Shown: positions 2,328 to 53,100 of the stretch, one piece after another | Layout of the letters: every line of letters begins with the position of its first letter | Position numbering within the stretch: position 1 is the first letter of the stretch | Assembly (NCBI GenBank): GCA_051294905.1 | Contig: CM119371.1 | Span: 13,084,001-13,148,000, forward strand | Reading direction: 5' to 3' | Length of the DNA: 64,000 nt | DNA from: Botryllus schlosseri | Taxonomy: Eukaryota | Translations under genes and position numbers: made by a program | The notes under the pieces: model-generated | Told to the model about the DNA's origin: nothing | What the model saw: the letters and a program-made list of their open reading frames with translations, nothing else | Database searches by the model: none

Positions 2328-4015
2328 ATTGTCCATTGCAACTTTAACTTTTCGTATTTTAAAATTCTATCAGCATTTTGTAGCATGCCTTTGGTGGCAA
2401 TCGATCCCAACGTGACCTAGATAGCCTACATAGCTTCAGCGAGAGTCCAATGCTACATTTCATGTAATTTATTAGCTGCAATCCGAATACGGTGGCTTTA
2501 TAAAGAAAATGCTGGCTGCAACCAATTTTTAGCAACATATTTATATCCCATTGCCTCCTAAATATTATGATCATATCTACTTAATTGGTTTTTATGATGA
2601 AAACGTAGACCATCACTGAATCAAATGGAATATCCTACGTTTACGCATTTCTGGCATTTGATTCACCAAATGATTAAGTCGGGCCTACAGCAATACCACA
2701 TGCTGTTGCATGTCGACGATGTCATCATCAATCAAGGTCAGGACCTACGTGTCGATTCCATGATTATGAGTAGTTCAGATTGGGTATTCGGATAAAATAG
2801 TATGTGAATATCCCTTCCATTTTTCAGCTTCTCAAATAAATGTTTGTGATTCGACCGAGACGACATCTCACCATCAATCGCAAAATGTAATCTGATTTGA
2901 TGTAATACGACTTTTATATCGAAAAGAACGTGGTCTCTCACATTCACGAACTGGCATTAAATTTCTGCATTTTAATATTTGCAATGTGATGTCTCTGGAA
3001 TATAAAAGTATGTGCTACATATCTCCGATATCGATTTAAAGCTTTTATACATGATGGGCTTGAAAATTTCGGCAGTTGTCATAGGTGTGGTTGTGGTGAT
3101 CATAATTGACCCTAATAGCATCGCAAGAGTGAGGTAATGGGGGCCGCCGAGTCAAGAGTCCCACCTTCCAGACATTCATAACTATAACCTTTTGCAATAT
3201 ATATATATATATACGAAGAGCTTCTTGGAGGTACAGAACTTCAATGAACAATTAAAAGTATATTCATATTGAAATGAACCCTGATGAGTGTTAGCCGAAA
3301 ATAGTCGAGTTCATTCATATTTATGTTGCTGAATTCCATCACTTTACTAGTGCTAGAATAATCGCTGCATTGTGATGGTGAATGATAGAAACTGCAACTA
3401 ATGACCAGGCATTGTGGAATATTTCCGTGCAGCTTCAGTATTGCCATTAAGACAGGAAACGGCTTCCACTTTCGCATCTTATTACGGGTCAGGTTGCGCT
3501 GCCAGATTTGAGCACGTCTGTGTGTTATTGTCAGAGTGAACTTGAGGAAGCAATAAGTAATATTATTTCTTTTAGGATCAAATCACGACTGTACATACAT
3601 ATATTCGCTCTGCGTTTGCAAATGCAGCGTGAACATTTGAGCTATGAAATGATACCTTTATGCGTTTCGGGAATTCGCGACTCACCGGAGAACGATGATA
3701 CGTCCGAACGTGCAATTTGCCATCATAGTATATTGGCGTAAAAGATTCGATAAACTTATGAATACATGTCCCTATTAGTGGGCGATACGGCTGAATGAGC
3801 ATCTTATATAGAAGGCGGCTAAAAGGTTTTATTTATATTTGCTGTGATTTATAATACAAATATGCCATCTTGCAGTAACGGACTTAGCAGTGACCAGATT
3901 AAGTCTACACGTGAGAGTCAGGGATATCAAGGCCAGGATTGGTGCTGCTTTCAGTCACTGCACTTTATATGTTGTAACCTCTCAGTTAGTTGGTTTGTAA
4001 GGACGTGCCCTTTGT

Positions 4016-12249: not shown

Positions 12250-13921
12250 ATCTATAGCCTATAATAGTGGTCCGCGATCCACGAAGCATTATCAGCGGGT
12301 CCGGGGAGCCTCTAAATTTACAAAATGATTGATGACCGTATTTGTATTGTATTTTCAAAATACAGAAATTCCGAGGCAGTTTCGCTTCATTGCTGCTACA
12401 ATTTCATGACTCACATCAACCGAATGACCGTTTGAGAGGAAAAATCCCACTTTTCATGGTCATTTTACTTGCCAAATTGGCTATAGCCCACTAATACAAA
12501 TATTTGCTGATTGGAGATGTTTTGTTTGGCTTTGTGGAACAAATAAAAAAGTCGGAATAGTAAGGTCAATCAGGGTGATACAAATGCTTTCCGAAATTCA
12601 TTTTCCTGTGATATATATAAATCTTTACTCTAGTCTAGAATAAATTCGAGATGAGCTGCTAGATAGAAGTGACTATTGGATAGACGTCATATTTTTAACA
12701 AAAATTATGTGTCTCAAATTCGGCGGCATGTATGTTGCGATCAAACTCAAAGGGATCGTCGGAAGCGTTGCCCATTATTATACTATTCGCCATCACTTAT
12801 TTTTGTGGAATTAAATTTTCTGCACTCGTTCATATCTAATCGAAGACACGAATTTCCAAGACACGGTAACGAATTTCAAGAAATGCAGCTGAAGAATTTG
12901 CCACCGTCTACCCAATTTCCACATAAATAGCGCGAGGTGTTCGTCAAGAATATTCATTCCGTTGCTGTTTGTCACTAGCCTACAATTAATATTCGCAAAA
13001 CACAGATGACGGCTTCACTGTAATTGAGCTATTTTTGAAGTAAAACTTTGAACTCGGTATGCTGGGGTCTTTGACGGTTATCAAGAGTTCTGCGAGGACA
13101 AAAAAGGTTGAGAACCACTGGTCCAAAATTATTGTCACCATACAAATATGCTTATTTAGCATATCTGTCATGACTAGGGCGTTTTCCTTTGTTAAAATAC
13201 GTAAACATTTTGTCAAAGTTGTAGCGTTAGGTCAAAAAATTGTCAAAATTATTTAAAAAGTCAAATTTCTTTTGCAACTTGCATTTCCGTTGTATCGGTA
13301 ATGTTTGCACTGTCAGCGAACTTATCATTTGACATTTCACAGCTTGTAGCCAATTTTTAGGCCTACCGTTATAGACAGCCCCTTGTCTTCTCATATTGAA
13401 TCATGAACGGCCAATTGAAACAAATATAGACTGACATGGTGTTAAGCTGAACTGAATGAGGACTGTGTGGACATTGGTTCATTTATCAAGAAGCATTATA
13501 TACCGATATAAGCATTAGACATAGCCTACTTTGAATTTGGGCCTTGAGTTCGTGTCACAATCTGGTATCTTTATTACTTCTATAGAAGTGATGACGGTAC
13601 TATAATGCAATGCAACAACATTATGTCTTATAGTTTTTTTTCTGGCTGCTTATGCTTGGCCGTGAATAGTGTCAGATCGAATATATTCGGGTTAATATAA
13701 AATATGAATAGCGTATTTATTAATATAGTTACCAGAAAAGAAATAACCGTTCTACCAATCTGCAGTATACGTCTCACGGAGACAATGAAAAAGGCATCCA
13801 GTTTGTGCAACGTATTGTTTCTCATTTGTTAAGTATCATTCGAAATAATGATAACACTAGAATAGAAAGTTGGGGCAACGTTAATGGAAATAGAAATGAT
13901 CTTGGGATCAGATCTCCAAAC

Positions 13922-13928
13922 TATAAAA
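13922..13928 (+). promoter_or_regulatory. TATA box of the secreted-peptide gene
   Basis: cTATAAAAgg lies about 65 nt upstream of a canonical donor (AG|gtaagt at 13992/13993) that closes a short non-coding first exon. Confidence 0.65.
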
Positions 13929-14073
13929 GGCGTGGACGAAACCACACATCCACATCGAACATAATCATTCGTCGCATATTGACCGATACAAGGTAAGTAT
14001 ATAAATAAACGTCCTTGGTTTTATACATTGACGTTCTTTTGTTTTAAATTATCTCAATTGTTATTCAGCCAAC

Positions 14074-14388
14074 ATGCAGATAAAAACTGTCCTCATCAGT
14101 CTCGTAATCGTCGGACTTGCCATGGCGACAGACGCATTCCGTGTGCATCGACGCAGGCGCAATGTTGCTCGTACACGCTCCGAAGACCGTGATGTAACGA
14201 ACCGGGACATGCATGAATATACGACCCAGGTAAGATTCTGTTAATTTCTGTTGCAGTCTACCACACGATACTACATTCAAAAGAACCAGTAAAACAGCAA
14301 GCTTTCTTTCGTCAAGTACTTTAGCGAAATACTAACGTGTTTATTATTGCAGAACATGGGCTTCGACGAATCTTTCGACAGTGAGTAA
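14074..14388 (+). CDS. 63-aa secreted peptide precursor (signal peptide, Arg-rich segment, acidic tail); antimicrobial-peptide-precursor-like. Coding exons 14074-14229 and 14353-14388
   Basis: Acceptor ttattcag|14069, start context ccaacATG, donor CAG|gtaag (phase 0), acceptor ttattgcag|14353, TAA at 14386-88. Protein MQIKTVLISLVIVGLAMATDA-FRVHRRRRNVARTRSEDRDVTNRDMHEYTTQ|NMGFDESFDSE*. AATAAA at 14826. Confidence 0.85.
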
Positions 14389-15195
14389 TTTGCTTCGGGA
14401 TGGGCATGTTCAATCGTCCATGCAAGATTTCTTCGAAATATTCATACATCAGTCGCTCCACGTTACCCACATTAGGCGCTCACTCGGTCACCCATAGATA
14501 TATTTGCTTTTTAATGTTCATTGCTGAGTTCTGAGAGTAAAGCTAAATGCGTGGCGAATATGAGAGTTGGTGATCGTAAGGCTCACGTTCACGTTCTGTG
14601 TGTGAACCTCATAAAGGTAGAGGTTCACGTTCACAAACGAGCCTTTGTAGGTTCTACACCAGTGGCGGGCAACTTCTTCGGTCGGCGGGACGGATAAGAG
14701 AAAATGAAGTACTTGGCGAGCCGGATAGCACAAAGAGAGAGAGAGAGAGAGAGACACAGAGACACAGAGATTTCGTCAACCGATGACGCTACAATGAATA
14801 GGACACATATAAATATGTAGTATTTAATAAAAGAAATAACATTGGTTTAGCGGTATTGAGTATGGTACTGGCGATATTATCAGGACAATCGTCAAATCAG
14901 CCATAACCAGAACAGAATATACACATTATTAGCGTATTTATCCACCTATACATATATATAGCTTAAGCGTAAGCTTATATTCCCTTGCCAATCCCCGTCG
15001 AAATTGTTGGCAAAGCGACGGAATATATTGATTTTATGAGATTATTATATCATTTGATTGCACCGTAGTTTATACATTATGTGACGTTTAAAAAGTCAGT
15101 ATGTACTTCAGCATTGTGGCCCGAGTCGTCGCTAAGTATCGTGTAGGTACAATAATATATCACTTCACTGAAATGTAGGGTTGGCATAAAGGGAA

Positions 15196-15380
15196 GCGAG
15201 TGGCGCAGTTGGTTAAACGCCAGCGTCAAGTCACCAATGGTAGTGGTTCGAATCCCGGTTCGAATTCGGGTTCGGACAAACTTCTATGTGTCGGAGGTCT
15301 CTCTGGGCTCCTCGTCGCCGACCTACCCAAGATAGCGTAATGGTGGAGAATGCCCGGCTTCTTGATCGGTATGTAGTGGA
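15196..15380 (+). mobile_element. tRNA-derived SINE
   Basis: Pol III A box TGGCGCAGTTGG (15201-12) and B box GGTTCGAATCC (15245-55), followed by a body (tgt-ggaggt...ctcctcg-cgcc) shared with 42679-42960; no clean cloverleaf. Confidence 0.7.
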
Positions 15381-17192
15381 TTCAATCTTGGTCGGGTCAC
15401 ATCAAAGTCTTGGAAAGTAACACTGATATTCATGGTATCCCTGCTTACGCTCAGCATACACGGAACAGTATAGAGAAGTGGTGCGAGACGTAGAAAGCGC
15501 CTTACAAATCCATTTCTGCACATCTATTGTTCAGCGCAGGGGCCAGCCTTTTCCGGTCACGGGCCACCTGAGATTAACGACGTATTATATGGGTCACTTG
15601 AATGTTGATAGGCTCTCAGTCCTCCCATAGCAGCAAACCGGATTACGTTACGGTAAAAAAGATACTCATATTACTACGCATCAAAATCGATAACAATCAT
15701 GGTAAGCTAGGGAAGCGCGAGATTAGTTCTATGGTAATGAATGAATTCGGTCAATAATAATGTCAATTGCATACATTGCGGGTCGCCTCTGTACACTGCT
15801 GGGCTCATTTGGCATGGACTACATTATTCGCCGCTCGAACATATTAATATCGAAGATTTCGGTGAACTGAACATGCGTATATCATTTTATGGAAATGTTT
15901 CATCGCCGAAGATCTTCCTCTGAGTGAAGAAGCAGAGTCGCTTTTTGAACGGCACGTTATCTCCTCTGATAATTGCGAATATATTTCGTCTCATATCAGG
16001 ATTTCTAATTTTTAATATTCTTGAAGGAATAGCAATAACCTATACACCGAGCATTTGAGTGACAATAAATCGCGTTAAGTCCTAAGAATACTATGAAGTA
16101 AAATATTACTTCCACGAAATATTCTACCACATGGTCATACACAAACCTCTACGAAAAATGCGGCTTGTTCCTGGCAACACAAATGCGTTGGATTCAGAAT
16201 TGATATTTTAGTCATCAACATCCCAAATTTCGCATCAGGCTTATCAAACTTTGGTTGGCCTTGTAAGTTCACAATTAATTGTCAGGATTATTCAATTTCT
16301 GATGTTTTAAGTAATTTATAGAATTACCTCGCGGGCAAATCAAAACCTTCATGCGGCCCACATTTATCCCGTGCGCCACTGGTTGGCCTCCCCTGGCCCA
16401 GCGACGTGTGCACGTTATGAACTTATAGCATGCATATGTATATATCGTGTATATGTCTGTCATGAGTCGGTGGAACTGCCTCAAACCCATCGACGACAAA
16501 AATAAACAACGTCCTCCTGTTGCTCATTGGTCGCTATGTCGGTAGTTAGAGTAATGGCAGATTCCTACCTTCGAAGAAAGAGGTGTCGATCCATGGCATG
16601 TTCCGGAATATCGAAGTGTGGGATATTTTCATTTCGGCCAATTTTCCCCACCGCCTTTACAGATCCCTAATTCAGTAACGAATGCTAAGGGCAAGGACAA
16701 AGCACTCGAAAACAGCTTAGATCTAGATAGCACACTGGCACACCGGTCATCGGACCGATGTGGATGTTGGTGGATACGAGACCGCCCTTGGTCGATTTAG
16801 CATCCATCGGTCTTGTGTCATCACCTTGTCTTGAGAGGATCAAAATAATAGAACCAACAATCATACTACAGCATCCGGAATACTACTCAGAATTAAGCGT
16901 TTGTTTGGTGTGGACGGCAACCAACTTTATTTATTTTTTCCACGGTATTCCTAAATAGTTCAATCGGCATCCCGGTTGAGAACTAATGGTAAAAGGTACG
17001 TGCGCAATATCAATTAACAGCATTCAAATGGAACGCGCAAAGTTAACAGGGTATACCTGTGGATAATAATACCAGCTGATATATGAATATATATATGGTA
17101 AATTGATGTTAGCGGGGCTGATAATGAATATGCAACGAAACAATTTTTCGTAGTAATTCGCGGACGGTATGTTAAATGGGGAGCGATCAATC

Positions 17193-17344
17193 ATCAGCCT
17201 CGAAATTTGCATCGTAATCGTGTTTTGCATTGTGACGCCACAATTCTGTCTAGCAAAACGAGAGTGAAGCTAAGAAGAAAGAGACTGACAGCGCTGTTGC
17301 GTCACAATGCCAATATCGATCACAATGCAAATTTCGAGGCTGAT
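17193..17344. mobile_element. 152-bp hairpin/mini-MITE
   Basis: atcagcctcgaaatttgcat...gcattgtgacgc pairs with gcgtcacaatgc...atgcaaatttcgaggctgat (about 46-bp imperfect arms). Confidence 0.65.
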
Positions 17345-17893
17345 TTTGGGAGTTCCAGGACCATGAGGAAAATAAAGTTTATATTTTCGTAATCAGTACA
17401 GCAGCAGCTTTCCATCGATACCCGTTTTATCGAATTTTGCTTCCGGCTGGCCGGTCAAGATTGGCCGTAAAGTTGCCTTTGGTCAAATGATAGTATGATG
17501 TAACCCAAATGCAGTAAGCCGATCAGTCTCGCTGTGTCCACACCATATAGGATATTATGGTGTCGCTGAAGCTCATCTGTATGTCTTGAATATAAATGAA
17601 GTTATGACGACGAATCTCTTTTCTACCAAATACACATTGCTCTTACGTGCCTCCGACGTACGGATCGATGCGCATATACGTTCCTTCGTACTGCATTAGT
17701 ACTTATTTCAGCCGGTCAAACATATTTGGAATAAAATGTTGTGCGATATCTTTCTAAGGTAGGGTATGTTTTCGTGTGTACCCCCTCTTCGGTGTGAATA
17801 TACATTCTTTTTTCGCTAAGAGTGTCTTCTGGCATGTAGTTCAGTATATATATAAACCAACGGGTAAATATTGAAAGAGGAATACGTGTTCAG

Positions 17894-18004
17894 ATTCAAC
17901 ATCCTTAAATACATCAAGAAGTGAAGAAATATCAACAGCAGCGCCAATGCTACCATCGAATTATTCTTGGATTACCTCACCAGGATACCATCATCACATC
18001 AAAA
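17894..18004 (+). CDS. Putative ectodomain exon of receptor paralog A with a CUB-like ITSPGY motif
   Basis: gttcag|...aaaa|gtaagg, 111 nt, phase 1-1: DSTSLNTSRSEEISTAAPMLPSNYSWITSPGYHHHIK. The next acceptor (18090) hits a stop at once, so downstream exons look decayed; linkage to the TM exon is inferred. Confidence 0.4.
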
Positions 18005-20800
18005 GTAAGGGGTTATTCGTAGTATGTGAGGAGACGTAGTATCGCTTGATTTTTGACAAGATTAACAATTTCTTATATCCTGATTTCAGATCTGTAACGT
18101 AGTCTCATAGCCCAAGCTCGAGATCTTTGAGTCTGAACCAGACGCCAATATTCGGGATATATTTCAGTTAAAATTCGATTCTGAACTAGTACTCGATTCC
18201 CACATACAGATCATAATCTATACACATCGATGGAAACGCATCATCAATTTGAACCTAATGTCTCAGTTATACTGTTGAAATTATAATTGTTAAAACGTAA
18301 AACAATCAAGTAATAAAAATGCATCCTTGAAGATTATAAGAAGATTACTTGGATTTCATCGGATGTGGGAATCTGTTCAATAGTCCTAACGGTTACTGGA
18401 GATTAGCTGGTTTGTCCTGACTCATTTTCCAATCATTCACCTAAAATTGTACTTTCCATGTTCATGTACTATAATCACAGGTATCTGCAAATAAAGTAAA
18501 ATGATATGTAGGAGTACCATTATGTTACCGGTTGGTCTGGTCACATGACCAGACCAGTTACTCTAACATCCCGCCGTTACTAATTGTATGATTCAATAGC
18601 CAACTAGGTGAGCAATTATAAGGTGTATAAGAACCAGTCGATAAGCTGCACCTCGACTGCGCTGTGCGTACGGTCTGAGATTACTCACAATTGAACATCA
18701 TGTTCATCTTATTTTTAATTTTTTTCCGTATTTTCAATTTTTCTTGAACGCTCATCTCGTTCTCAAAATCGATCAGGTAACCGCCGCCATCTCTAAAAGA
18801 ATCTGTTGGTGAAATTCCTTGCATGCCGCGACAATTATTAGCAGAGGTGGTCAAAGAAGTCAGCATTGCTACTCAAGTAGAAGTTGAATTACCATCGAAA
18901 ATTTCTTCTCAATTTCATGTAGAAATATCAATTTCATTTACATGCAAAATCTACTTCGCATGGAAGTAGTAAATGATAGGTAGGAAATGTAGTCGAGCAA
19001 GTCGATTCCAAAAGTAAATTTGGTCACACTTAGCCGGATGTGACTATTTTCTTTAATTGAATGATGCATCTTGGGTAACCAGCAAGACCAAACTGCTATA
19101 ATAACATTACAAATGGCACAATATCCGCAACTGTATTGATTTATCGTGATTCCGAGGCTATCTCGCAAAACTAATTTCCCCTTTCAGTAAAAATAAAAAG
19201 CATATCTGCTTCCTCACTGAGCACCTCCGACTATGACTAATAATTTATTGAAAATTGGATATATAATGTTTTCAGTATAGGTCATTAGATCGGCGACTAA
19301 TCGGATCCTTTCCTTGATTTAATATTGCCTGAAAATTTAGAGTACCTCACAGAGCGAAGCATATCGAAGTCCCTCAACTGTATACGTTGAAACAGGGGTC
19401 ACCAACCTTTTTGAAACCAATGGCTACTTCTTGGGTACTGATTAATACGACGGGCTACCAGTTACTCTCGTTGTTCATCCGTGCGCAGTTAGATATTTTA
19501 ACTTGTAGACATTCAAAGCACTGGGCAGGGTTTCCGCCCCTTTCCAAGAACATATAACTCTCACTTAACGAGACGTTGAGTTGCCGCCAATCTCCCTGTC
19601 AAGACACGGTAATATTAAATGGATTCCAGGTATGTCTCTGCGTTGGCGCAGATGAGCAACACCACGATAGAAAACTGCGTTCATATTAGTGATGAGTGGA
19701 TGTTGATTTTTGAGAATCAGAACCCGTCCGACAGGTTGCATGTCTGTAAAACTATCCGTCCGACTCCAACGAATCTCATCCAAATATCCGACTATCCGAA
19801 AATGTCGTCTGAGAGTTGTCAAAATCCGTAGAAAATAACGTTATCACAGAATATCAATTATAAAACTGAACTGAGATACTTTTCTGCACTAGAAGATCAC
19901 TAATTGGAATAATAAAAAAAGCGTTGTTGGACTTTTTAATATTGGAAGATTAACGCAAGGAACGTTACTACTTTGAAGTAAGTGTGCGAATGAAACTTGC
20001 ATCTCGGATCGAAAGCAAGGAAAAAGGGCGGATTATGAGGCAATGAACATATAAAACAACCAAACATTGATCCATATTACTCACTTAATATCAAAATTAA
20101 TACAAACCAATTGTTACCATGGAATTTTGACAATTATAAGAGGGTCAACATTCGATTTACACAATCCGCATTTTGCCCAGAACTGTTGGAAGGCGGGAAA
20201 GCTTGTTCAATTGCAACTTGCTAAATGTGATGTTTATATTAAGTTTCATAATTCAGATCAACTTTCGGGGCACAATGCTTATATTCGACAAACAAATAAT
20301 GTCCATATTCATATTGCTGTACCACAAAAGTGCAGTAGTCTAAATTTCCTCCCCAGTAGCAGCAGAAAAGTAATTGCATCGCTGACTTGTTTATTGGGAG
20401 AGATGAAACTAATTTTCAACTGTGCAGTGTCCTTGACCTTTCGGATGTGGTTTCTAAGGTGTCTTGGGCCACTTGAAAACTTGCGTTGTTTCAATTTTGG
20501 CTGCTTCGTAAAGCACTGCTTCTAGTCGCTTTCGAGGTAAATTCTGCGGCACCACTCTTATTTCTACCTGAGTAGCTTCTCGACTACTTTAATTTACCAG
20601 GATAGCATGGTGGGGTTCCGCATGACTTAGAAATCCTTACTCGGCTATTTCTGCACCTTCATTGTCCAGCCGCATATGCTCATCATGCACTCATGGTATG
20701 CACATGCACATGCACGGATCGTCGGTACGTCATATTTTTAGTAGGTGTATATGCCGCGGAAACATTAGTGACAAAATAAACAGCGTCCTATGTCCTAAGT

Positions 20801-21457
20801 CAGGGGCCACCAACATGTGTTTCGCGCGCCGCATGCGGTCCACGACATGATTTGAGATTTCTGTAGAATGCTTAGAAAAGCATTTTGAAATGCTGAAATT
20901 GATTACAGTTTCAACATGTTGTTTTTGTTTCAAAATAAGCTATTCTGTTGTGCCCTACATCACTATTCCTCACTAACCGAAACGGCTTTAGCGATGGCAA
21001 CTATTGACAACGACATTCCATTGAAGGAAAATCAGCTGATATTAATGCCCTGCCTTGACCATCGCCATCGCCTTGACGTGCAATGGCCCAAACACTGATG
21101 CGTAGAAAACGGCTTATTTTAGGAGCTTTACGTTGAGTTGGTATTTCATCTAGTTACGTCTCTCGCTAGCCGCAATATTGATTCCATCTTCACGGGAAAG
21201 TTTTGCCAGATATCGTGCACAAATCATGATTTTTGTTGTATTTGTATTCCCTTGATGATCCCCTTTGTATTTCCTTATGTAGTAATAATATGCTCATCAC
21301 CTATGTAAGATAACACTGCGTTGTATCAACATAAAGCTTTAAATCGTGGTTGCTAAGCTGTGTAGCCTATTTTATATTGATATTGAATTTTTGCGGCCCG
21401 CGACCGCTACCAAATTTGAAAAGTGGACCGCGACCCTTTTTGAGTTCACGACCCCTG
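20801..21457. mobile_element. hAT (Buster-type) MITE
   Basis: cagggg...cccctg ends; perfect TSD TCCTAAGT at 20793-20800 and 21458-21465. Confidence 0.88.
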
Positions 21458-21500
21458 TCCTAAGTCTTATATCCTATTGAGCACCTCTTGCCAATAACAG

Positions 21501-21632
21501 AACTATCAAGCACTGCTTGATATATTCTCGCCATATATACTGACGCAGGTATAGAGTCTACCAAGTTAATCGTGACAGAAACAGACGGGAGGTATGTTCC
21601 GAACAGCGCAGCGGACACCGAGGCCTCATTTA
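21501..21632 (+). pseudogene. Ser/Thr-rich stalk exon of receptor paralog A with an in-frame TGA (21518-20)
   Basis: aacag|...ttta|gtgagt, 132 nt, phase 1-1, which fits the TM exon. Reads ELSSTA*YILAIYTDAGIESTKLIVTETDGRYVPNSAADTEASF. An internal AG at 21547-48 would skip the stop in frame. Confidence 0.55.
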
Positions 21633-21909
21633 GTGAGTATTCCATCAACGTGATGGCATCGTTGAGCTCGGTGGCATCAATTTCACATAAAATTCTAGAT
21701 ACTTTCAGGCAAACTCAAAGAGGGTTTCTAAAAATGGATACAAATAATTTGCTAAAGAACGCACCCCCAGTAGTCCCTAATCTAAAAACGTCCTAAAAAC
21801 GTGAATACGTCCTTTTCTTGACATCAAAACCGAAGGTAATCAATCATTCATGTTTGTGTATATGATTTTTCAATTCCGTAATCCCGCAAATATAACATTA
21901 AGTTATTAG

Positions 21910-22720
21910 TCTGGAGATTTTTTTGACATGTCAAAGAGTCAAAATTTTGTCAAAATTGTAGCGTTAGGTCAATAAATTGTCGGAATTGTTCACGAAGTAA
22001 TTATTTTTTGCAACCTGCATTTCGTTTGTATCGTAGATGTTGGCACTGTCGGTGAACATTTGACATTTTACAGCTTGTAACCTACTTTACAGGCCAACCG
22101 TTGTGAACGGCCCATTGTCTGCTCATTGTGAATCATAAACGGTCAAATGAAACAATTGTGGTTGACATGGTATTGTGCACAACGTACCTCAACATCCTAA
22201 TCCTAACTGTAGCATTGGTTCTTCTACCGAGAAGCGCATGATGAAAAATTCTGATATAGGGAACATTGTCAGAATGAAAAAACTTTGTGTCAACAGCAGT
22301 GTACGCATAACTTCAGTATTGCCAACCAACAACTGCCGCTGTTGAATGTTCTTTCTCCATTCTTGACAAGCTACTAGGTAAGGACAGACACTTTTTACCC
22401 GAGATTCAAGGAAACTATTGTTCGTTTTACTACAGCAAATCCTAATTATATCTACCACAATGCGTGACATAAATGCTGGAATTCTTCATAGGTCCAGATT
22501 TTGTTAAAATATAGCTTTTTCATGTAAAAATATGTTAGTTTTAAAGTGAAAAAGTTTTTTTCAGGCCACAGTATACTTCGCAAGGACAGACAGATCTAAC
22601 CAGAAATGAAGATGGGTAGTACAATTCTAAAATTATGTGCGAAAACACCTAATTTACATACACGAGGTCAAAATTTGTCAAAATGAAATTTTTCGAGGTC
22701 ACAAAATGTCAAAATTTTAA
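21910..22720 (+). mobile_element. Decayed second copy of the hAT-derived element at 980-1860 (intronic)
   Basis: Colinear similarity with 1030-1820, including the now frameshifted dimerization-domain remnant. Confidence 0.75.
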
Positions 22721-22854
22721 TATTTCAGTCCGCTTAACGCCTGTCTAAGTGTCTTTACTGGATGTGTTTTTATTCCGCTAATATGACTGCGTTGACAAAA
22801 ATAAAATTACATCGAGTTCGTTTTGATCGGCTATCGACACGAATTTTTATTCAG

Positions 22855-24153
22855 ATTCTGGATCAGCGCTACGTTACGAAGTCATAGTCGGTATTGTGGC
22901 ATGCGTACTCCTGGCGATTCTTGCATTGGTGGCTCTCATACTTTTGTACAGAAAGTAAGTGGACTCTTTTGTGAACTTTAGTATCAGCAATTTTCGACTT
23001 AGTGCATACGCATATCAGTTTTCCATGTCTCAGTAGCGTTATAAAATCTCAATAAAGTCTCAGTCACAAGAAGAGAACCATGATTTCTATCTGACCTGCA
23101 TTCAAAGTTTTACTGATCCCTTTCTCTCCATGCACACCCCCTGGATATAATGGTTGAATTATCACTGTAAACTGAAGGGAATCAGTCATTATTATCAGCC
23201 GCCATTATGATTTACATACAATAAGGTTATGTCCTAAATACTAGAAAGCATCACAGTTAAATTTTTCCTCAAATAATGACCTATACATTTTAAGGGGCGA
23301 TTATTCTAAAGAGCTGTACTAGATATAACACCTTGGCCAAAAATAGACCAAAGTTCAGACATGTAAATACAAAATGTTTGACAGGGGTAATAATTTTGCC
23401 ACATGCGATCAACTGCAAAACCTTCAATATCTGAGCTTCTATCGTTAAATTGCCGCGCCCAAAAATTATTGTTCAGATGTAAAAAGACTCAATTGTAATT
23501 ACAGACTAGTTTCCGTCGAAGTTTAGCACATTTTGGTTAGTTTCCATCAGCAGCTCCGTCAAATTAGATATTAGGGTTATTGCATTGTCATATCAAAAAG
23601 AAGACACAACATCACTGAAGTCTTCAAATCTCTATTCGGTACCCCCGCAAATAAAATATTTGTTTGCCATGTATATTCTCTGACTTCATAAACATTGATA
23701 TTAGATACCGTAAGTATCAGGAAAGTAGTAATGTCCTCTTACATTAGCGAACATGCGAAGTCTTTGGAATTATTGGCTGTTGCCCTCTTTCAAGTAGGAA
23801 TTATCAAGTGATTCATATCAAAATCAGAACGAATTAGTCATCGTGAGTTCACACGATCTTCAGTATAGTGGTCATAGGGTAATAACCTGTAAAATATTTT
23901 TAGAAGGGTCAAGAAGCAGGAAGTAATCGCGGAAAACAAGGAAAATGTTCTTTACGAAGTGGACGCATCGTTCGTAGTCACGAAGAATGATACGGCCTTG
24001 TTCAAAAATAACGGGACGTATGTCACCGATGATGACACTGCGAATCCCGTGAATCTGAGCTCCTGCGATCACACATTTTCGTCGGCAGAACAAACCGATG
24101 GCGGTACAGCCGCACATGTAATGAAAGAAAACATTATTTACGGGACTCGTTGA
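22855..24153 (+). CDS. Receptor paralog A: transmembrane exon 22855-22954 and cytoplasmic exon 23904-24153 with three NxxY motifs
   Basis: ttattcag|(N/D)SGSALRYEVIVGIVACVLLAILALVALILLYR-aa|gtaagt (phase 2) joins atttttag|a to give KRVKKQEVIAENKENVLYEVDASFVVTKNDTALFKNNGTYVTDDDTANPVNLSSCDHTFSSAEQTDGGTAAHVMKENIIYGTR*. AATAAA at 24525. Confidence 0.88.
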
Positions 24154-24899
24154 ATTGCATAATATAATTTCTATTCCTGTGTGATGTCAAGTTATACTCG
24201 GACGCCGTCTGTTAAAACATATCATCGGTCAGACAGCATACTGTTTCCAAAAAAGGTTGGTCAAATTTGAACACAAGGAGTATTTACACATATCGTCGAT
24301 ACATTCTCCTACTCCTACTATCTATGCAATTTTGAATTTGAGAATAGCGCCTCTAAAGGTTTCAGGAACGCCAGGAAAATTATGTAAAGACCTTTTGGTT
24401 TACCTGTGTTTTGTAGCTAGATATACAACCAGGGGGTATTTTTCCTGGAATTGTGGTGTAGTGGTAGGTTATAATTTGTTGTTAGTGTATCTGTTAACAT
24501 TTAATACTATGATGCAATCGAACGAATAAATTAATTACATACCCCTCAGCTACATGCAAAAAATAATATGCCGCCTCCAGACACACACACTGTTAATCGT
24601 ACACTCTAAATTCGAATGCGTGCGGAGGAACGCAAAATTACACGCCAAATCCGTTTTTTTTTAAACTACCACACAACGTGCTGGAGCCGATGTGTGTCTG
24701 GCTATCCTGTGTTTAGTGGTGGTGTGTTCATGCTGACTTGCGCAGAGCTCGAAATTAATACCAGCCATCCATGAATTTTTACTCAGCTTAGGCTCAAAAA
24801 AGATTTTATTGCAACGAAAGATGAATACAGAACATTCATTTGCAGACGAAAATGTGTGAATTTCTAGCTTGCACAATTGAAAAATTTAAGCTTTTCCAA

Positions 24900-27540
24900 A
24901 TAGAAATAAGAAGTACAGCTACAAAGTTGTCATAAATTAGATTCTAATTAGAGCAAAGAAACGTTTCACTAATTGGTGCAGAATTAGAATTATAGCAACA
25001 CAGTTGTTTTCGCAAATTAGATTCTAATTAGAGAAAAGAAGCATTTCACAAATTGGTGTAGCAATAGAATTATAGCGACACAGTTGCAACCACAAATTAC
25101 ATTTGAATCAAAGCAAAGAAACATTTCACAAATTGGGATAGAATTAGAATCATAGCGACATAAGTTGTCATCACAAATTAGATTCTAATTGGAGCAAAAA
25201 CATTTCAAAAATTGGAGTAGAATTACAATCATAGCAACACAGTTGTTTTCACAAATTAGATTCAAATTAGAGCAAAGAAACATTTAACAAATTGGGGTAG
25301 AATTACAATCATAGCAACATAGTTGTTTTCACAAATTAGATTCTAATTGGAGCAAAGAAACATTTCACAAATTGGGGTAGAATTACAATCATAGCAACAC
25401 AGTTGTTTTCACAAATTAGATTCTAATTGGAGCAAAGAAACATTTCACAAATTGGGGTAGAATTACAATCATAGCAACACAGTTGTTTTCACAAATTAGA
25501 TTCAAATTAGAGCAAAGTAACATTTCACAAATTGGGGTAGAATTACAATCATAGCAACACAGTTGTTTTCACAAATTAGATTCTAATTGGAGCAAAGAAA
25601 CATTTCACAAATTGGGGTAGAATTACAATCATAGCAACACAGTTGTTTTCACAAATTAGATTCTAATTGGAGCAAAAAACATTTCACAAATTGGGGTAGA
25701 ATTACAATCATAGCAACACAGTTGTTTTCACAAATTAGATTCTAATTGGAGCAAAGAAACATTACACAAATTGGGGTAGAATTACAATCATAGCAACACA
25801 GTTGTTTTCATAAATTAGATTCTAATTGGAGCAAAGAAACATTTAGCAAATTGGGGTAGAATTACAATCATAGCAACACAATTGTTTTCACAAATTAGAT
25901 TCTAATTGGAACAAAAAACATTTCACAAATTGGGGTAGAATTACAATCATAGCAACACAGTTGTTTTCACAAATTAGATTCTAATTGGAGCAAAGACACA
26001 TTTCACAAATTTGGGTAGAATTACAATCATAGCAACACAGTTGTTTTCACAAATTAGATTCTAATTGGAGCAAAGAAACATTTAGCAAATTGGGGTAGAA
26101 TTACAATCATAGCAACACAGTTGTTTTCACAAATTAGATTCTAATTGGAGCAAAATACATTTCACAAATTGGGGTAGAATTACAATCATAGCAACACAGT
26201 TGTTTTCACAAATTAGATTCTAATTGGAGCAAAAAACATTTCACAAATTGGGGTAGAATTACAATCATAGCAACACAGTTGTTTTCATAAATTAGATTCT
26301 AATTAATGCAAAAAACATTTCCCAAATTGGAGTATAATTAAAGTCATAGCGACACAGTTGTTATCACAAATTAGATTCTAATTAGTGCAAAAAAGATTTC
26401 ATAAATTGGAGTAGAGTTAGAATCATGGCGACACAATTGTTATCACAAATTAGATTCTAATTAGAGAAAATAACATTTCAAAAATAGGAGTAGAATTACA
26501 ATCATAGCAACACAGTTGTTTTCACAAATTAGACTCTAATTAACGCAAAAAAACATTTCAAATATTGGAGTAGAATTAGAATGATGGTAACACAGTTGTT
26601 TTCACAAATTAGATTCTAATTAGATCAAAAAAACATTTCCCAAATTGGAGTAGAATTAGAATCATAGCGACACAGTTGTTATCACAAATTAGATTCTAAT
26701 TAGAGCAAAAAAACATTTCAAATATTGGAGTAGAATTAGAATGATGGTAACACAGTTGTTTTCACAAATTAGATTCTAATTAGATCAAAAAAACATTTCC
26801 CAAATTGGAGTAGAATTAGAATCATAGCGACACAGTTGTTATCACAAATTAGATTCTAATTAGAGCAAAAAAACATTTCAAATATTGGAGTAGAATTAGA
26901 ATGATGGTAACACAGTTGTTTTCACAAATTAGATTCTAATTAGATCAAAAAAACATTTCCCAAATTGGAGTAGAATTATAATTACGGTATAGCGACACAG
27001 TTGTTATCACAAATTCGATTCGAATCAGAGCAAAGTGACATTTGAAAAATAGAAGTAGAATCAGAATAATTACTGCAGTATATTTTCTGAATTAGACTAG
27101 AGTCCAATTAGAGGTAGTTTTTATTTCAATTAGAATTAGAAATATAGCTATACGGTAGTTGTTTTCTAAATTAGATTCGATTGAGAGCAAAGAAACATTT
27201 CGCAAATTAGCGTAGCATCAGAATTTATAGCTACACAGCTTTTTCCAAATTAGAGTAGAAATAGATTTGTAGTTTTTTTTCGAAATTAGAGTGGGACCAG
27301 AATTATAGTAACAGTTTTTTTCAAATAATAAAGTAGAATTAGAACTATAGCTACACTGTTTTTTCCAAATTAGAGTACAATTAGAATGATGGGTTCAGTT
27401 GTTTTCACAAATTAGATTCGAATGAGAGAGACGAAGCACTTCACGAATTAAAGTAGAATTAGAATTATAGCTAGTTTTTTTTCAAAAGTATCATCAGAAT
27501 TTTAGCTACACATTTTTTCACTCTAATTAGACAACTAGAC
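24900..27540. repeat. Satellite array, 79-80-bp unit, homogeneous core with degenerate edges
   Basis: Unit agttgttttcacaaattagattctaattggagcaaagaaacatttcacaaattggggtagaattacaatcatagcaacac starts at 25321, 25401, 25481, 25561 and onward; 160-bp periodicity at 26561/26721/26881. Confidence 0.97.
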
Positions 27541-34100: not shown

Positions 34101-36293
34101 ATAATGGAAGTCATAGTCAAGTCAGACAATCATGTGGTTGTAACAATGCTATATATAATTGGGTTGAAATGATCAATTACTTCTGCCAGTTTGGTAGGTA
34201 AATAAAATGAGAAGAGAAACGTTCACAAAACCTAGTAAATGCAAGAAAGCGACACACTAAAATAATGGAGCAACATTGATGAAACAGCAGTCCACTTCAT
34301 GGCTCCTGAGCTATGTGCCCTTTTAGGTACGCATGTGTGCAATTGATTTGAGCTGACGCGGTCTCTGCTCACATAAATTATAAGTTGCGCACAAAAAATC
34401 CGAAGAGATGACCTTTTTTTAGTGGTTACGCACTGTTGTCCAAGGGACCGCGCAGTGAATAGGTGAGCGCTTGCTGCAGACTCGTCAAAATTAGAGGTAA
34501 CATTGCTTATGAGCTATATGTAAACGGGGCTAAAAGCACGCACTACTTACACGAGAGTCGTTATTACCGTTCAACATCTATTATAGAAATGCTGCATCAT
34601 TTGAGAATCTATATCTTGCAGCTTAATTCCTCCCCTGCAAATATCCCAGCGGGAGCAAACGGACCCCAGGGTCATTGGGTTTACCGATGACGTCATGATC
34701 GGCACACGAGTGTACCGTACCTTACCCTGGATGATCTGGTCATTTACCAGTGATATTACGATAAGTTTCAGCAGCGTTTCCAGCGTCGACCTCACAATCC
34801 CTCTCAATCTTACTGATCTCACAACTGGTGCGGCGACTTACCGGACTATTAAAATGTATACGTAAACTCTTTCATAGTGATCAAAGCCGGCGACAGATGA
34901 TAAGATGAGAGCAGAAGCACATATTTCGTAACTTTATCTGATGAAGTGTGGACTTGCACATATTATGACACCACTTCGGCGAAAGATTTGGGTCGACTTT
35001 ATGTGTTTGTCCCATATTGCATCTCTGAATGCACAATTTTGTGTCTAAATCGATGCTTTCGATTTAGAGTGTACCGCGACAATGGTGCTACAGCGACTAG
35101 CGATACGGAGATAATGTCGAAATCCGGGCACGATATTGATGTATATTGAGCGACTGTCCTTTGTGGGAGACGTCGTAACTACCATAGCTATTCATTGGCA
35201 CTATAGAGAGTAAAATAATTTGCTGGCAACGTGAGATGTGATTAATCGAGCCCCTTGCGTCGTCAACATAAATGTGCAGTACTGTTTACGCGGAACTACA
35301 CCAACTTGTATGTGGAAAAGAATGCGATTAAATCTCCTTGAAGCGGCGTCTCGCTGTTTTCAAAATATGAATCATTGCAACAATGACATGACTCACATAA
35401 TATTATTAAGTGTAGGGCCTACTGTACGTCATCAACAAGTACTTCCTCTTCATAGTTTCAGATATGCATGCTGTATATGGTTGCTATGATTGCATGATAA
35501 ATTTACAATCATGGCTATGTCTGTCTTTCGGCCGATTTAAAAAAAAAATGTAAATCATTCGGTAATGCTCTTACCGGAAAGCCTCTAGAAAACAGCTGGA
35601 AGATATACAAAGCGTAGACTGACTGTTATGGGGAATTTTGGGTTTATGTCAGGAAGCTTCACTTTCGTTATCCGCCAATGTCTATGTATCACAGTAAGTT
35701 TACGACAGTGTGTAATCACAGTGAGAGTTCATGTCAGCGGTGTAGTACTTCATCCATATTCCATATGTAGATTACTTGAAATTGGTTTGGCAAAAATCAT
35801 CCTAAATGTGCAGTGTAATTCAAAGGATCGGCTTAAGATTAATTTTCTCGATTTTCAATAAGCCTTGTGATACGCTTTGAGTTTCGACCTGACAATAGAA
35901 CGAAAAACGTATAGGTAATTACCACTGCCGAGACTAAAAATATTCGCTGTGGTTCTCATGTAATTCATTCCTATCGTTGTTAAAGACGTCGTATAATACT
36001 GTATGCCATATCGAGAAACCACACAATATTAGTAAAGCCATCATCATATCCAAGTCTGACATCTGAAAATTGCGGCCAGCGCATAACACGAATTCATCAC
36101 GCCGCTTTTCAGCACGGGAAAAGCTAGAGTTATCCAGCACACGGTTATTGTGGTCGGCTACCACACCAAGTCTAACTTTTTTCTAGTTCGATTAGATTCT
36201 GATTAGGTCGGCGCGGTGTTGTAGGAGCTCCTTTGCGAATCCGTTAACTCAGGTGAAATTTCAGCATGTATCTGCAGACCATATGATATAGAC

Positions 36294-42083: not shown

Positions 42084-45000
42084 TATTTGCGTACCTAACG
42101 TATCATTATATCCTAAAAGGTGTGGATTCTATGATTTTGGACAATGCGATACGCCGGAGAGTTTGGACATAGTGAAGAAATCCTGTCAGAATCGACAATC
42201 ATGTAAACTGAAATCAAATGATCAACTGTTTGGTGACGAATGTGCAGTAACCTCAGCGTATTTGGAAGTCACATACGGCTGTGTAGACGATGGTACGTTT
42301 AAATAATACAAGGGCTTATGAATCGATACACTAATAGACCATGATCTGAAAACTCTAGGATTTGTATGCTTTATTATTTCTCAGTGATGCCACCAAAATA
42401 TTAAAATATGTTTCATATCAAAATATTAGAATATATTTTAATATTTTCTAAACCCAGTATTTTTTCTTTTCCCAACCGCGTACCAGTAATTTGTACTTTT
42501 ACTATACTTGTGATCATCTGGAACCTGAATGACTACTTTTACTCGAATTATTCGCCCTGCATTAGTTATTCGCGTTATTACTCTGCGATATCACAAATGA
42601 ATCGCTAGAAAACACAATAGAATTTGGTAGATGCAATTGTCTACTGATCACGGGCTTGTATACATCCGCGGTAGTAGTGGCGAGATAGCGCAGTGGTATA
42701 ATCCGCTGCTGCAACACCAATGGGTGCGGGTTCGAGTCCGACCGAGGTCGACTTCCGAATTCCGGTACCTAAGTGTTGGAGGTTTACCTAGGCTTCTCCT
42801 CGCCACCTTATCCGCGTCGGCGGTGTCTTACAAAAAGCCTAGAGGTGGGCCGTGCTCTATAAGTCGGCAGTTACGGAAAATATGAAGAATATCGGCCTGG
42901 TGTAAATGACCATAGCAGTCGACAAACACCATGAAATACCCCAAAACAAACAAAACAAACATCCGCGGTATATTATTACTCGAAGCATATGTGCAGGCTC
43001 AATTCGACCATTTCGTCTCTTGTACGCCTTATCCATTACGGCCAATAACATTTGCTCACAGTCCTGTGTCGAGGCAGAGATCTGGATGATTCTTTTCCGC
43101 GTAACGTTCCAGTATCTTTGAAATATATCTTGATCATACATTTCCACGATATAGTTGTACTCGCTTTACAAGATTCATAACGATTAAAAATAGAGATTGA
43201 CAGAAAAATATCGGATATTTTCAAATATTAAGATATGACAAAATAATTTGTTTCATGTTCACTATGCAATTTGCAGAAATAAGAACCTCCAGCACTGTTC
43301 AAGATCGTATCACCACCTATACCGACACTTCAGAAACAGCCGATTTTATGATGACACAAACGGGCAAGTATATCAGTTGTTCACTGTTACTTACAAGTAT
43401 GTAATTTATTTTGACGGATCAATTCTGGACAAATTTGGGTTCTCGTCCCAGCAATATATATATATATATATATGTATAATATTTGAAATTTGATATATAA
43501 TTATTGACCAGTGGTTCTTAACCGATGGTCCACGAAGTATTTCCATGGGTCCACGAAACCTTGTTCAAAGTAAGCTATTCTCCTGTGCCCAATATCACTA
43601 TCCCTCACTAGCTGATACGGCTTCGGCGATGGTAATATCAATCCACGGAGAAAGAATTTGCTGATATGAATGGACATATTGCCTTATCGTGCAATGGTTC
43701 ACCATCGCCAGGACCGTGACTCTTAGAAAATGACTTCGGGCTCCCCCAAAGACCAAGATTTACGACGAGATATTTTTCCAGCAAGTAGGCCGACTGTGTC
43801 TTGCTAACCCCAATATCGATTCCTCAGTCCAGGGGTGGCAAATTTGCGCCAGTAGAATGAATATTATGCGGTAGTCGACACTTAATGCGAGTATAGGATG
43901 TGTTGTCAGCCGTCAATATGCAAATTGAAGTTACGAATTGGCTCTTAAGTAATTAGACGTCTGAATTATCGTTGAAATTTTCATCACGCTACGCGCTGAT
44001 CTATGCGAATTGATTTCCGATTTTAACATAGCATGCAGAGTCCTTTGTAATGTAACCCCAGCAGTACATATGCGAACAGCAGAGGAAAATGATGCGCCCC
44101 ATAAGGAAACACCAAATTGTCATCGTGTTCTCCTCATCACGAATTTGTTTCTGGTAGGCCTACGTTTGGGCGAATCCAATCTATTTCAACCATACCGACA
44201 ATCCTAATGGTCAAGAAATACGAGCATGCAACAAAAGGGACTAATGAAAATTGGTCCATCCAAAGATGCCGAACAGCAATAATAACGTCCCTAAATTTTT
44301 GACCACACCCTTGCATCAACTCTACCGCTGAATCTGATCACATGAGCTAAGAAAAGATAAATATTTGATAGTAATATGTGCAACTAACGATGCGCATGCG
44401 CATAGTAAGCCGATTTGAGTGAATAGATTAGCCGGCAATTGACATGAATAGTTTAACGTGGATATTTGGCCTCCAGTTTGTTCATTACGACTATGCACTG
44501 GAATGCGGTCGTAGGCTACATAAGTAGTCGAAATGCTGCCGTGAATAGCAAAATGGATCGCCACCCCTGCTTTTGTTGCTGAAGAGTGTTGTTAGGTATC
44601 GTGCGCAGCTAATAGTGCAAAATAGAATGAAAGTAGTGATGATGATATTTTTTGTTGTGTTTGTATTTCTTTAATAAAATATTATTTCTTTTGTGGTAAC
44701 TATGCTCGTCAGCCCTGTTGTAGAGTACAGCGTTGTACTGACGTAGAATTATCAAAACGTGGTTATTAAACTGCGTTGCCTATTTTTATCTCTATATTCG
44801 AGTCATGCGGCCCGCGGCCTCTACAAATTTTCGAAAACTATCTTGACCCGTTTTTAGCTGGCGACCCTGGCTTTATGGTATATAATAGATAATGATGTAA
44901 CGTAGGTTTGCCGAATTTCGGAAATCAGAAACGAGGACACATTTTCGAAATTTTCAGACTCAGAATACGGAACAAAAATCCGTGTCCGTTGGTTAACTTG

Positions 45001-50152: not shown

Positions 50153-53100
50153 TTATCTCGTCACATAGAGATTAATTTTCGTCACGCTTGTATCTCCTCT
50201 GTTGTCTTTCTGTTTTTTGGAAGAGTTGCCGCATTCCGATGTGTTCGTATTTACATCATTAATGACTGAATATGTCGCATCCATTGAATTCAAGATGGCG
50301 ACATCTTTCGACGGAAAGTACGAGTCACTCGTCGGCTGATCTGTACCGTTTCCACGTTCAGCTGAGACTTCTTGATCAGTTCTCCTGTCGCGGATTCTGT
50401 AATGCATATCCGTCTGTATGTATCCAGTAATTAATTTTAAGCAGTCTTAACCCATTTCAGTAAATTGTCGCTTCCTGGATTGTTTACTAATGGATCTGTG
50501 GCGATTATTTCGACGTCTTTATTGTATCATCTCAGTGGTGGGCAGCTATTAAACCAGCGATGTCGAATTCAATCCAAGTTACGGCCCTGATTCATAATAT
50601 GTTAATCGCTTGTGGACCGTACCAGCCAAATGATCCCGAAATACTTTTTTTCAAATATGATTGTATCCCAACGAGTGTAGCGTCATTTTGAAATTTATAA
50701 ACAATATATGATGCTACAGATCACAGGAGCTTTATTCGAGAACCATCTTCATTCGCAAACAATTGAATTGGCAAAAGTATAATGATAGATCAATTCAATG
50801 CGATCATAAGCCACCGAGACAGTATTTTCAAACCTTCGTGTAACGACGATATCATTGGCTTAATTTCTTTGCTCACTTCGTTCTTATCATAATGTGTAAT
50901 CCTTTCAATCCTTTAGTATTTTGCCTATTACTCATTTGATATTCCAAACCACTATTCGGCCTACTTACATTTTTTTTATATTTTTTGTGACGCGAGACTC
51001 GAATTGAACAATGCTTAATTAGTACTCCATTAATGTAGCTGACCGGATGATCTGCGGGAATCCCTAAGGATTGTATCGCTGCAGCATGTATTAGATTTTT
51101 ATTGCAATTTTGTTCAATAAAACTGTATGTCTGTAAACGCGGACAATGCGAATTAGATTCATTATTATCAATTCACATCGTTTCAACAAAGAATATTTCA
51201 AAATACGCCGTAAAAATGTTGCTGTAGCGCCTCATTGAATTAACCCACTTGGTGTACTTTGATAGCGTTGATTTGCTTAATAGAATAAAGTGAATGACTT
51301 TCTAAGGCTTTAAATAGGAATTTATATATCAATAGGACCACATATGTCAAATATATTTGCATGATATTCTTCGAACTAGGGCAGTGGTTCCCAACCTGAG
51401 GTAGGCGTACCACTAGTGGTGAGCGAAGGTTTTCTAGGTGGTACGAGAGTAGATTCTGTTTGTTTGTTTTTTCGACCGGAGGTAGTTATTGGTTCAGGTG
51501 GGGTTGATTTTGAGTGTTTGGAATTTTCTGACTGGTGGTGAAAAAAACAATTCCATGCACCCCATCAACCCTGGCTGATAATGCCTAGTTTAATAGAATT
51601 TGTTATTACATCTCGCATAGGTCAAATACGTCATTATGACGTAATACATGGTGAAAACATTTTAGGCCACCTTCTGCGCGCGTAACTTATGTAGGTTGTG
51701 CGAGCGCACTACATTAAACCTCCAAATGGTACGTGGGTGGAAAAAGGTTGGGAACCGCTGAATTAGGGTTACCATACGTCCTCTGTTAAGAAGATTTGTC
51801 CTCCTTTTTCAATAAATTGAAAGTGTCCCCGGAGGATGCCTAAATGTCCTATGTTTTAGGCATTTGTCATCTCTTTATAGAAAGGAATAAAATGCGATGA
51901 AAATCTCGACCCCGACGCACCGAACGTCATAGACAATGTGATTAATTTTGTTTAGTTAACACAGTACAATTGGTCGAACGGTTTTCAAAATCACCAGTTT
52001 TCAGAATCTTTGAGAAATGGCCTCTTTTTTGGATCTCAAAATATGATTACCGTATTTGAACACTATGTAACTTGCATTCGACGGATTAGCATAGCGCTTT
52101 ACCTCTGTAAATGCCTACCTCTCCGCCAATTTTTTTAAACATTTTCTCGGTAATTCGTGCCGATTTAACAGATGTATAATAAGAAAGACTAGAGTCAAAA
52201 CGAAAAACTGTTATTGGCAGGGGATAATGTGGCATATGAACACGTTATAGCTTGGGAATAGATTATTTAAGTGGGAGTATTTCCTCTTACAAACCTCAGC
52301 CTTTGTGGAAACATTTTATTTACTAAGCATTGCTTCGTGGGCCGGAGGACTACGTTTATAATTTTTAAAATGCACTTCTAAAACTATTCGGGCGGAACCC
52401 ACCTTGTATATATCATAATTATAATCGCCAAAATTAGGAGTGTTACTATCGCTGATCCGATGCCTACGATGATTCCAGTAGCTAGCGTGGTCGTGCTACC
52501 TGGTAAGCTCATCGTGTCGATTTCGCTGCGCAAAGAGTTTGTAGACGCATTATATTCCGTCACTTGTCCAGAATAATCCGTAATGTTAATTATGTTCGTC
52601 TGTGGAGTCACTTCTGTAAAAGTTGTTAGCAAGTGAATGTTAAAATATAACGTTTTCTCATATGTAATAACTGAAACATCAGTCTCACATTGAAAATAAA
52701 ACTAAATTTAAGCTCCAATTACTTTGACCAGTGATTTTTAAACATATACATATAATTACGTCGAATAGATCAGTAACGTAATTTCAACTTAGTGTTATAT
52801 TTCGGTATGTGCGGCAGTTTTGCTTTTTGAAACCCTGGTGATATGGTTTACAATGTTAATATGTTATGTCATAATTGCAAATGCAACTGGACTGGATACG
52901 TAAGTTACGAGTATTTTCTTCTCATTTTTATTTTCGACGTGCGCTATCCATAAAAAAATCAACAAAATAAAGAGATAGGCCTACTAATTCAAGCCCTAAT
53001 AAAATTTGCAATGAATACTGATGCAAAAAACACTCGAAATAATTCAGATGGTTTCACGCCCCCGCCCTAAGGTGCGCGTCCCCAGTTTACGAACCCTTGC

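Follow-up and report, generated by a model that had tools for sequence, protein, structure and literature searches.

The locus examined here raises the question of whether a short stretch of the Botryllus schlosseri genome that carries a promoter, a predicted signal peptide and an Arg-rich segment encodes a complete small precursor of a secreted peptide, or is part of something larger. It was studied in a window of 64,000 nucleotides (NCBI GenBank assembly GCA_051294905.1, contig CM119371.1, positions 13,084,001 to 13,148,000 of the forward strand); coordinates are those of this window, and gene features, open frames and the retrotransposon are on its plus strand unless otherwise stated. A reading made from the sequence alone had described a complete gene at 13922..14831, laid out like an ascidian antimicrobial precursor and lying inside a receptor cluster. 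Our preferred explanation, held tentatively, is that the gene belongs, as a divergent member, to a family of small secreted precursors of defence type with a conserved leader, and is weakly expressed or restricted to certain genotypes.

Gene structure and predicted product

Every element of the gene described by the sequence-only reading was found in its place. The TATA box (TATAAA, 13922..13928) was followed by a non-coding exon 1 of 41 nt (13952..13992), intron 1 of 76 nt with GT-AG borders (GTAAGT..CAG, 13993..14068), exon 2 (14069..14229) and a predicted intron 2 of 123 nt (GT-AG, GTAAGA..CAG, 14230..14352) in phase 0 with a branch-point-like motif. On the plus strand no ATG occurred from 13901 until the start codon at 14074 in exon 2, which encodes the 21-aa signal, the Arg-rich segment (the RRRR codons, residues 26-29, at 14149-14160) and the beginning of the acidic tail. 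Exon 3, if terminal, would supply a further 11 codons and a TAA stop (coding part 14353..14388, stop 14386-14388). A putative poly(A) signal, AATAAA with GT-rich sequence 3' of it, lay at 14826..14831 and was the only AATAAA on this strand between 14004 and 16064.

Under the terminal-exon model a product of 63 aa lacking Cys is predicted, and the composition claimed for it earlier was borne out. Residues 1-21 form the signal by proxy criteria (best 11-residue hydropathy 3.05, uncharged core, Lys in the n-region, Thr and Ala at -3 and -1). Residues 22-35 contain 7 Arg in 14 (net +7), while the 28-aa tail (residues 36-63), whose end depends on the predicted intron 2, contains 9 Asp/Glu and 2 Arg (net -7), so that the propeptide would be neutral. 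A single-sequence AlphaFold2 model of exon 2 gave one helix, with pLDDT declining from 76 to 59 past the signal and a pTM of 0.35.

The 64-kb window contained 976 ATG frames of at least 18 codons, 34 of them signal-like and one with a signal followed by a strongly cationic stretch. Thirty shuffles gave a mean of 0.1 such frames, and 3 of the 30 had one; the protein layout alone is therefore just modestly above chance. That the 5' part of the gene is real follows from the RNA read data given below. By self-comparison of the window the gene region lay outside every repeat shared within it. A copy of a repeated element was located at 13168-13452, 500-750 nt 5' of the promoter; related copies occur at about 1.0k, 9.4-9.7k and 21.9k. 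A crude pattern scan returned one kB-like site at 12439, which is not treated as evidence.

Protein searches were made with the exon 2 protein (52 aa). Proteins of 28-91 aa yielded no candidate; longer proteins yielded 34 candidates, none at E <= 10. The sole match in 1.84 billion representatives, 22 residues of a 1420-aa beta-helix protein (E 6e-4), was rejected as compositional, and the best ESM Atlas score, 0.80, was taken as a lead only. Pfam returned only DUF7313 at E 0.07, below the cut-off, and there were no matches in PDB or in a motif scan of metagenome contigs. The paralogues that the sequence-only reading had proposed to look for were not found within the window by blastn or tblastn. 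No description of the peptide or its family was found in the literature within reach, most subscription papers lying outside it.

RNA reads and the abundant homologue

Reads from four of 24 runs (X3, X7, X1 and X10; tissue not given) were aligned to 13500-24400 at 92% identity, using 3-25% of the reads per run, and splice joints were listed when present in at least 3 reads. Run X10 gave no reads aligned to this stretch. Intron 1 was skipped in 527 (X3), 332 (X7) and 60 (X1) reads. In X7, 188 reads carried a loose end just before 13952, which we take to be the template-switch oligo; these ends place the start site at about 13952, 30 nt downstream of the TATA box.

The reads that skip intron 1 came from a homologue. 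Base 14082 had another letter in 543 of 545 (X3), 342 of 342 (X7) and 60 of 60 (X1) reads, and at bases 14098-14099 the window's letters appeared in 0 of 122 reads in X3 and 0 of 61 in X7 (0 of 183 together). These mismatches assign the reads to the homologue and not to the window copy. Over 78 shared nt the homologue differed from the window at 8 places among those listed (about 10%). Over the first ten codons its coverage dropped from about 545 reads to 122, and it stopped near 14105, inside the signal peptide. The reads thus demonstrate that a close homologue sharing this 5' architecture is transcribed and spliced at a high level. As far as the homologue could be followed, this pattern, a relative about 10% different that fades inside the signal, fits the conserved leader and variable remainder described for Ciona precursors (PMC7387483).

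Further 3' the reads were sparse. In the bin 14228-14591, which takes in exon 3 along with 203 nt of the predicted 3' UTR, the mean depth was 0.33 in X3 and 0.27 in X7; in X1 it was 1.17, mostly on the strand opposite to that of the spliced reads. No joint for intron 2 was among those listed for X3, X7 and X1. The transcript and splicing support that the sequence-only reading had called for was accordingly obtained in part: the start site and intron 1 have it, from homologue reads, and intron 2, exon 3 and the poly(A) site do not. Expression of the window copy itself was not seen in the runs examined (3-25% of each).

The abundant transcript is an observation in its own right: hundreds of reads at one joint in each of three runs, with an exon 1 and first ten codons about 90% identical to those of the window. 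A second locus for it was not found within the window. Its source would be a paralogue or a strongly diverged allele or lineage; we consider a paralogue the more probable, because reads span the joint of the neighbouring membrane gene with 75 bases each side. The literature searched offered nothing usable on divergence between lineages. A short element at 15191-15324 belongs to a family that is also heavily transcribed (mean depth about 530 in X3; template-switch ends at 15191 in 862 and 350 reads) and by eye resembles a tRNA-derived SINE. An Rfam search of 13500-16500 returned one match below threshold, and there was no ARAGORN hit.

The read data bear directly on the proposal that the exons arose by duplication of the abundant gene's 5' exons and are now silent or decaying, the frame ending in a former intron and yielding no product. 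We regard this as quite improbable. The window's letters were missing from the reads at 14098-14099 in the two runs that cover them, the stop codon lies within a donor motif, and the surroundings are repeat-rich (about 20% of the window), all of which would suit a decaying copy. Against this, the TATA box, ATG, splice sites and frame are all intact, and with 3-25% of four runs sampled, one of them without aligned reads, an inducible or genotype-specific gene could easily be missed.

The 3' end of the gene and the downstream membrane-protein gene

The claim that the gene is complete was not confirmed. A perfect match to a splice donor, GTGAGT at 14381..14386, is in phase 1 and begins 5 nt ahead of the stop codon, which it overlaps together with the last two sense codons; with this donor in play the claim is unproven. 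If the donor were used, exon 3 would be an internal exon of 28 nt (14353-14380). A stop directly behind a perfect donor is the usual appearance of a frame that is read into an intron. Counting both strands, the window contains 46 GTRAGT sites (0.00036 per base); phase-1 read-through of these sites met a stop within three codons in 12 of the 46, and the chance of such a hexamer falling in the last 9 nt of a coding sequence is about 0.3-0.4%. From these figures a rough, post-hoc estimate of about 30 was obtained for the likelihood ratio in favour of a real donor.

The last three exons of a single-pass membrane-protein gene were recognised at 21549..24153 from read joints and phases: a stalk exon (21549-21632, depth about 8 in X3), a TM exon (22855-22954) and a tail exon containing Tyr (23904-24153). 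They are connected by the joints 21632>22855 (6 reads in X3, 1 in X1) and 22954>23904 (3 reads in X3). Splicing at 14381 would join exon 3 in phase to these exons with no internal stop. The predicted chain has 205 residues, or 242 if a possible Ser/Thr-rich exon at 17894..18004 is included (phase 1-1, weak acceptor with a pyrimidine fraction of 0.33), and runs from signal through RRRR and an acidic and Ser/Thr-rich stalk to TM and Tyr-containing tail.

The peptide exons could therefore be the 5' end of this downstream gene, encoding a protein of 205 or 242 aa. In that case the 63-aa form would be an artefact, produced by following the frame into the intron, or would come from intronic polyadenylation as a secreted isoform. 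We judge this membrane-gene model unlikely. The hexamer at 14381 is the same as that of the read-used donor at 21633, the likelihood ratio points to a real donor, and Ciona provides a precedent in Ci8short and Ci8long (PMC3639994), where the use of an intronic poly(A) site yields a form of 73 aa that lacks the TM regions present in the long form. This is the pattern that the membrane-gene model needs, and in the window a donor before the stop, a poly(A) signal and in-frame TM exons are encountered in sequence only. For Ci8 both transcripts were cloned, whereas of the window copy neither isoform was seen and no read carried its letters at the diagnostic bases; Ci8long is moreover RTP-like, with two TM regions, and unrelated in sequence to the window chain (PMC3639994).

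Several observations speak against the membrane-gene model. The stalk exon was covered in X3, yet no reads with the window's letters were found at 14098-14099. Depth over 17894-18004 was at most 0.43 (X3), and no joint into 21549 or out of 14380 was among those listed (at least 3 reads being needed). An exon at 3001..3133, outside the read-aligned stretch, has its own TATA box 50 nt upstream of an ATG at 3051 and a signal-like hydropathy of 3.89; its donor at 3134 is in phase 2, and it is a candidate for the start of the membrane-protein gene. Phase compatibility is a 1-in-3 chance, and such abundance of a homologue would be unusual for a receptor. That no longer protein was matched in the searches weighs weakly in the same direction. 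The suggestion in the sequence-only reading that exon 3 might splice on at 14381 thus has the donor and an open chain in its favour and the missing joint against it.

Alternatively, a real donor at 14381 could splice to a further short exon, the fourth, or could be left over from a parent gene. Twenty other acceptor candidates were considered between 14420 and 18100 and none stood out or had a listed joint. Stretches resembling extracellular-domain exons, with in-frame stops, occur at 17894-19200 and may be membrane-gene exons that have decayed; an interpretation of 17.9-19.2k as a CUB domain was abandoned, since the frames that follow carry stops.

Processing of the precursor

The sequence-only reading had offered RRRR and RTR as convertase sites releasing an acidic signalling peptide, and the two fared differently. 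RRRR followed by N is a full furin consensus, eight residues past the signal; RTR does not have the form R-x-x-R. A minimal furin site, RVHR, is also present at residues 23-26. The furin site falls inside the 14-residue mature peptide that had been proposed. Cleavage after Arg29 would leave an 8-residue basic stub (FRVHRRRR) and a 34-residue acidic peptide, while a cut before the first acidic residues would, by analogy with styelins and clavanins, which are cleaved before Asp, give about 15 residues with a charge of +7 and without an amidating Gly.

If FRVHRRRR were a short pro-sequence, furin would free the 34-residue C-terminal part as a hormone-like or immune signal. The position of the full consensus agrees with this, furin has been reported in morula-cell granules (PMC9966394), and a signalling peptide secreted by the blood cells of Ciona, CiEMa, is not antimicrobial (PMC10888236). 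The product, however, has no likeness to any Pfam peptide-hormone family and no Gly-basic or Gly-Asp amidation site, and the homologue diverges rapidly past the leader, where receptor ligands would tend to conserve the mature part. It has also been argued that ascidian precursors are cut before acidic residues and not at basic motifs (PMC7387483). On balance we find an acidic signal improbable.

Comparison with tunicate antimicrobial precursors

Ciona antimicrobial precursors mostly follow the order signal, cationic, anionic, with a leader conserved within a family and a variable remainder (PMC7387483). The predicted product shares this order, a length of 50-100 aa and the lack of Cys with Ci-MAM, Ci-PAP, KH.C7.94, KH.C1.640 and KH.C5.577, and an Arg run behind aromatic residues (aromatic-x-RRRR) is common to it and several Ciona precursors (PMC7387483). 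By sequence, and with the signal judged by proxy, it has the length, the signal peptide and the C-terminal anionic region of a Ciona-type precursor. Unlike the Ciona precursors it has four residues only before the Arg run and no amphipathic hydrophobic helix, and no sequence similarity to them was found; compared by eye, its signal fits neither published Ciona consensus, that of Ci-MAM included (PMC7387483).

The published cationic screen (PMC7387483) uses an 18-residue window, a hydrophobicity of 0-0.6, a moment of 0.1-1.0 and a charge of +3 to +10. With the hydrophobicity scale used here, 0 of 25 windows passed (0 of 27 with an earlier cut) and all had a hydrophobicity below 0, the best cationic windows reaching -0.22 to -0.29 on that scale. 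The anionic screen from the same source was passed by 9 of the 25 windows, a count that depends on the predicted intron 2.

The Ciona segment KH.C7.94, an Arg-rich and barely hydrophobic 27-mer (-0.033, +11), was active, although not among the most salt-resistant (PMC7387483). Closest to the product in composition, by eye, are KH.S1007.2, KH.L63.9 and KH.C1.365, in which Phe or Arg leads straight into the Arg run (KH.S1007.2 begins Phe-Gly-Arg-Arg-Arg-Arg); they are without detectable homology to it, had no or weak activity and were rejected in that study on account of a low aggregation propensity (PMC7387483).

Styelins, clavanins and botryllin share with the product a prepropeptide with a C-terminal acidic propiece (PMC9966394, PMC10608444). 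The KHK motif of styelins and botryllin (mature peptide 31-37 residues; PMC9966394) is absent, the product having no Lys after the signal. Clavanin and clavaspirin are His-rich, C-terminally amidated 23-mers, whereas residues 22-35 contain one His and there is no Gly at the boundary of the cationic and acidic parts. The product is neither Phe- nor His-rich, and has 63 aa against 158 aa for botryllin. Botryllin was compared by primer, motif and length, and its published forward primer had no match in the window at 3 mismatches; it has paralogues (PMC13635237, PMC12212465, PMC10817596, bioRxiv 2025.05.20.655184). By these comparisons the predicted product is Ciona-like in layout and stands outside the Ci-MAM, styelin, botryllin and clavanin families. 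The ascidian layout claimed for it hence held for the order of the segments, and did not extend to the hydrophobicity screen, the KHK motif or the His content.

Genomic surroundings

The receptor cluster in which the gene was said to lie is partly supported, by paralogous tail exons, a minus-strand TM exon and a lectin exon. The cytoplasmic-tail exons at 2091-2312 and 23904-24153 are paralogous (34% identity, E 1e-5) and have no Pfam or Atlas assignment; they belong to orphan single-pass proteins and end in a similar K-E-N-I-I motif. On the minus strand 50156-50446 and 52387-52701 form a third gene with stalk, TM and Tyr-containing tail, its TM exon near 52.4k, for which no confident Pfam match was obtained. 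A SUEL (rhamnose/galactose-binding) lectin exon was identified at 42118-42282 (Pfam PF02140, E 1e-12); a Thr-rich exon comes after it near 43.3k, and a hydrophobic one near 46.9k.

Elsewhere in the window, an 80-bp unit is repeated in tandem at 24926-27061 (26.7 copies, 89% matches). A broken copia-type retrotransposon occupies several frames at 58156-61888, with Pfam matches to an integrase core and GAG-pre-integrase, and has a 47-bp tandem duplication within it at 60279-60372. Adjacent open frames of 86 and 81 codons at 34605-35149 are protein-like and have no Pfam match.

Discussion

A divergent member of a conserved-leader precursor family remains our preferred account, on a tentative footing. 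Members of such a family would have in common the placing of the promoter, exon 1, intron 1 and the beginning of the signal peptide, and would differ beyond that. The 63-aa precursor, slightly longer if there is a fourth exon, would enter the secretory pathway and lose 21 residues, and the tail would keep the Arg segment neutral during storage. Removal of the tail may then follow, through a cut immediately ahead of the first acidic residues like that in styelins and clavanins, or through furin cleavage at RRRR. Host defence would be the most likely role, with blood or epithelial cells as the source, and a defence peptide of this kind might bind microbial surfaces or polyanions through its charge, or enter cells, rather than act as an amphipathic membrane-lytic helix.

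The size, the lack of Cys, the order of the segments, the anionic windows and the canonical AATAAA with its GT-rich 3' sequence fit this account, as far as sequence can tell. A small secreted effector also fits the numbers of intron 1 reads when set against the depth of about 8 on the membrane-gene exon. Against it stand the diagnostic bases, at which no read had the window's letters, the lack of exon 3 and 3' UTR reads and the failure of every cationic window; the furin site within the proposed mature peptide likewise tells against it, and the perfect donor at 14381 is an argument against a terminal exon 3. A role of the peptide family in defence is probable. It is doubtful that the peptide has direct antimicrobial activity, and it seems too hydrophilic for a typical membrane-killing antibiotic. 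The host-defence candidate of the sequence-only reading thus keeps its promoter and signal and gains an abundant relative sharing its leader, but its cationic part does not pass the screen.

A further arrangement, for which we see a slim chance, would have one gene produce both the secreted Arg-rich precursor (stop at 14386, poly(A) at 14826) and, via 14381, a receptor of 205-242 residues. If this were true, the receptor would have the same Arg-rich, furin-cleavable tip and a Tyr-containing tail, an IgM-like secreted/membrane switch in an ascidian that joins a defence-peptide leader to a signalling receptor.

As it stands, the gene joins other candidates of a kind for which a catalogue exists in Ciona. 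At a minimum, it points to an unannotated and very abundant secreted-protein transcript with the same leader in this ascidian, and to a family without a match in the protein libraries searched. An active peptide would bring a short, Arg-rich and non-amphipathic type to the defence peptides of tunicates. Use of the donor at 14381 would mean that exons are shared between a peptide precursor and a receptor, which would be the more surprising outcome.
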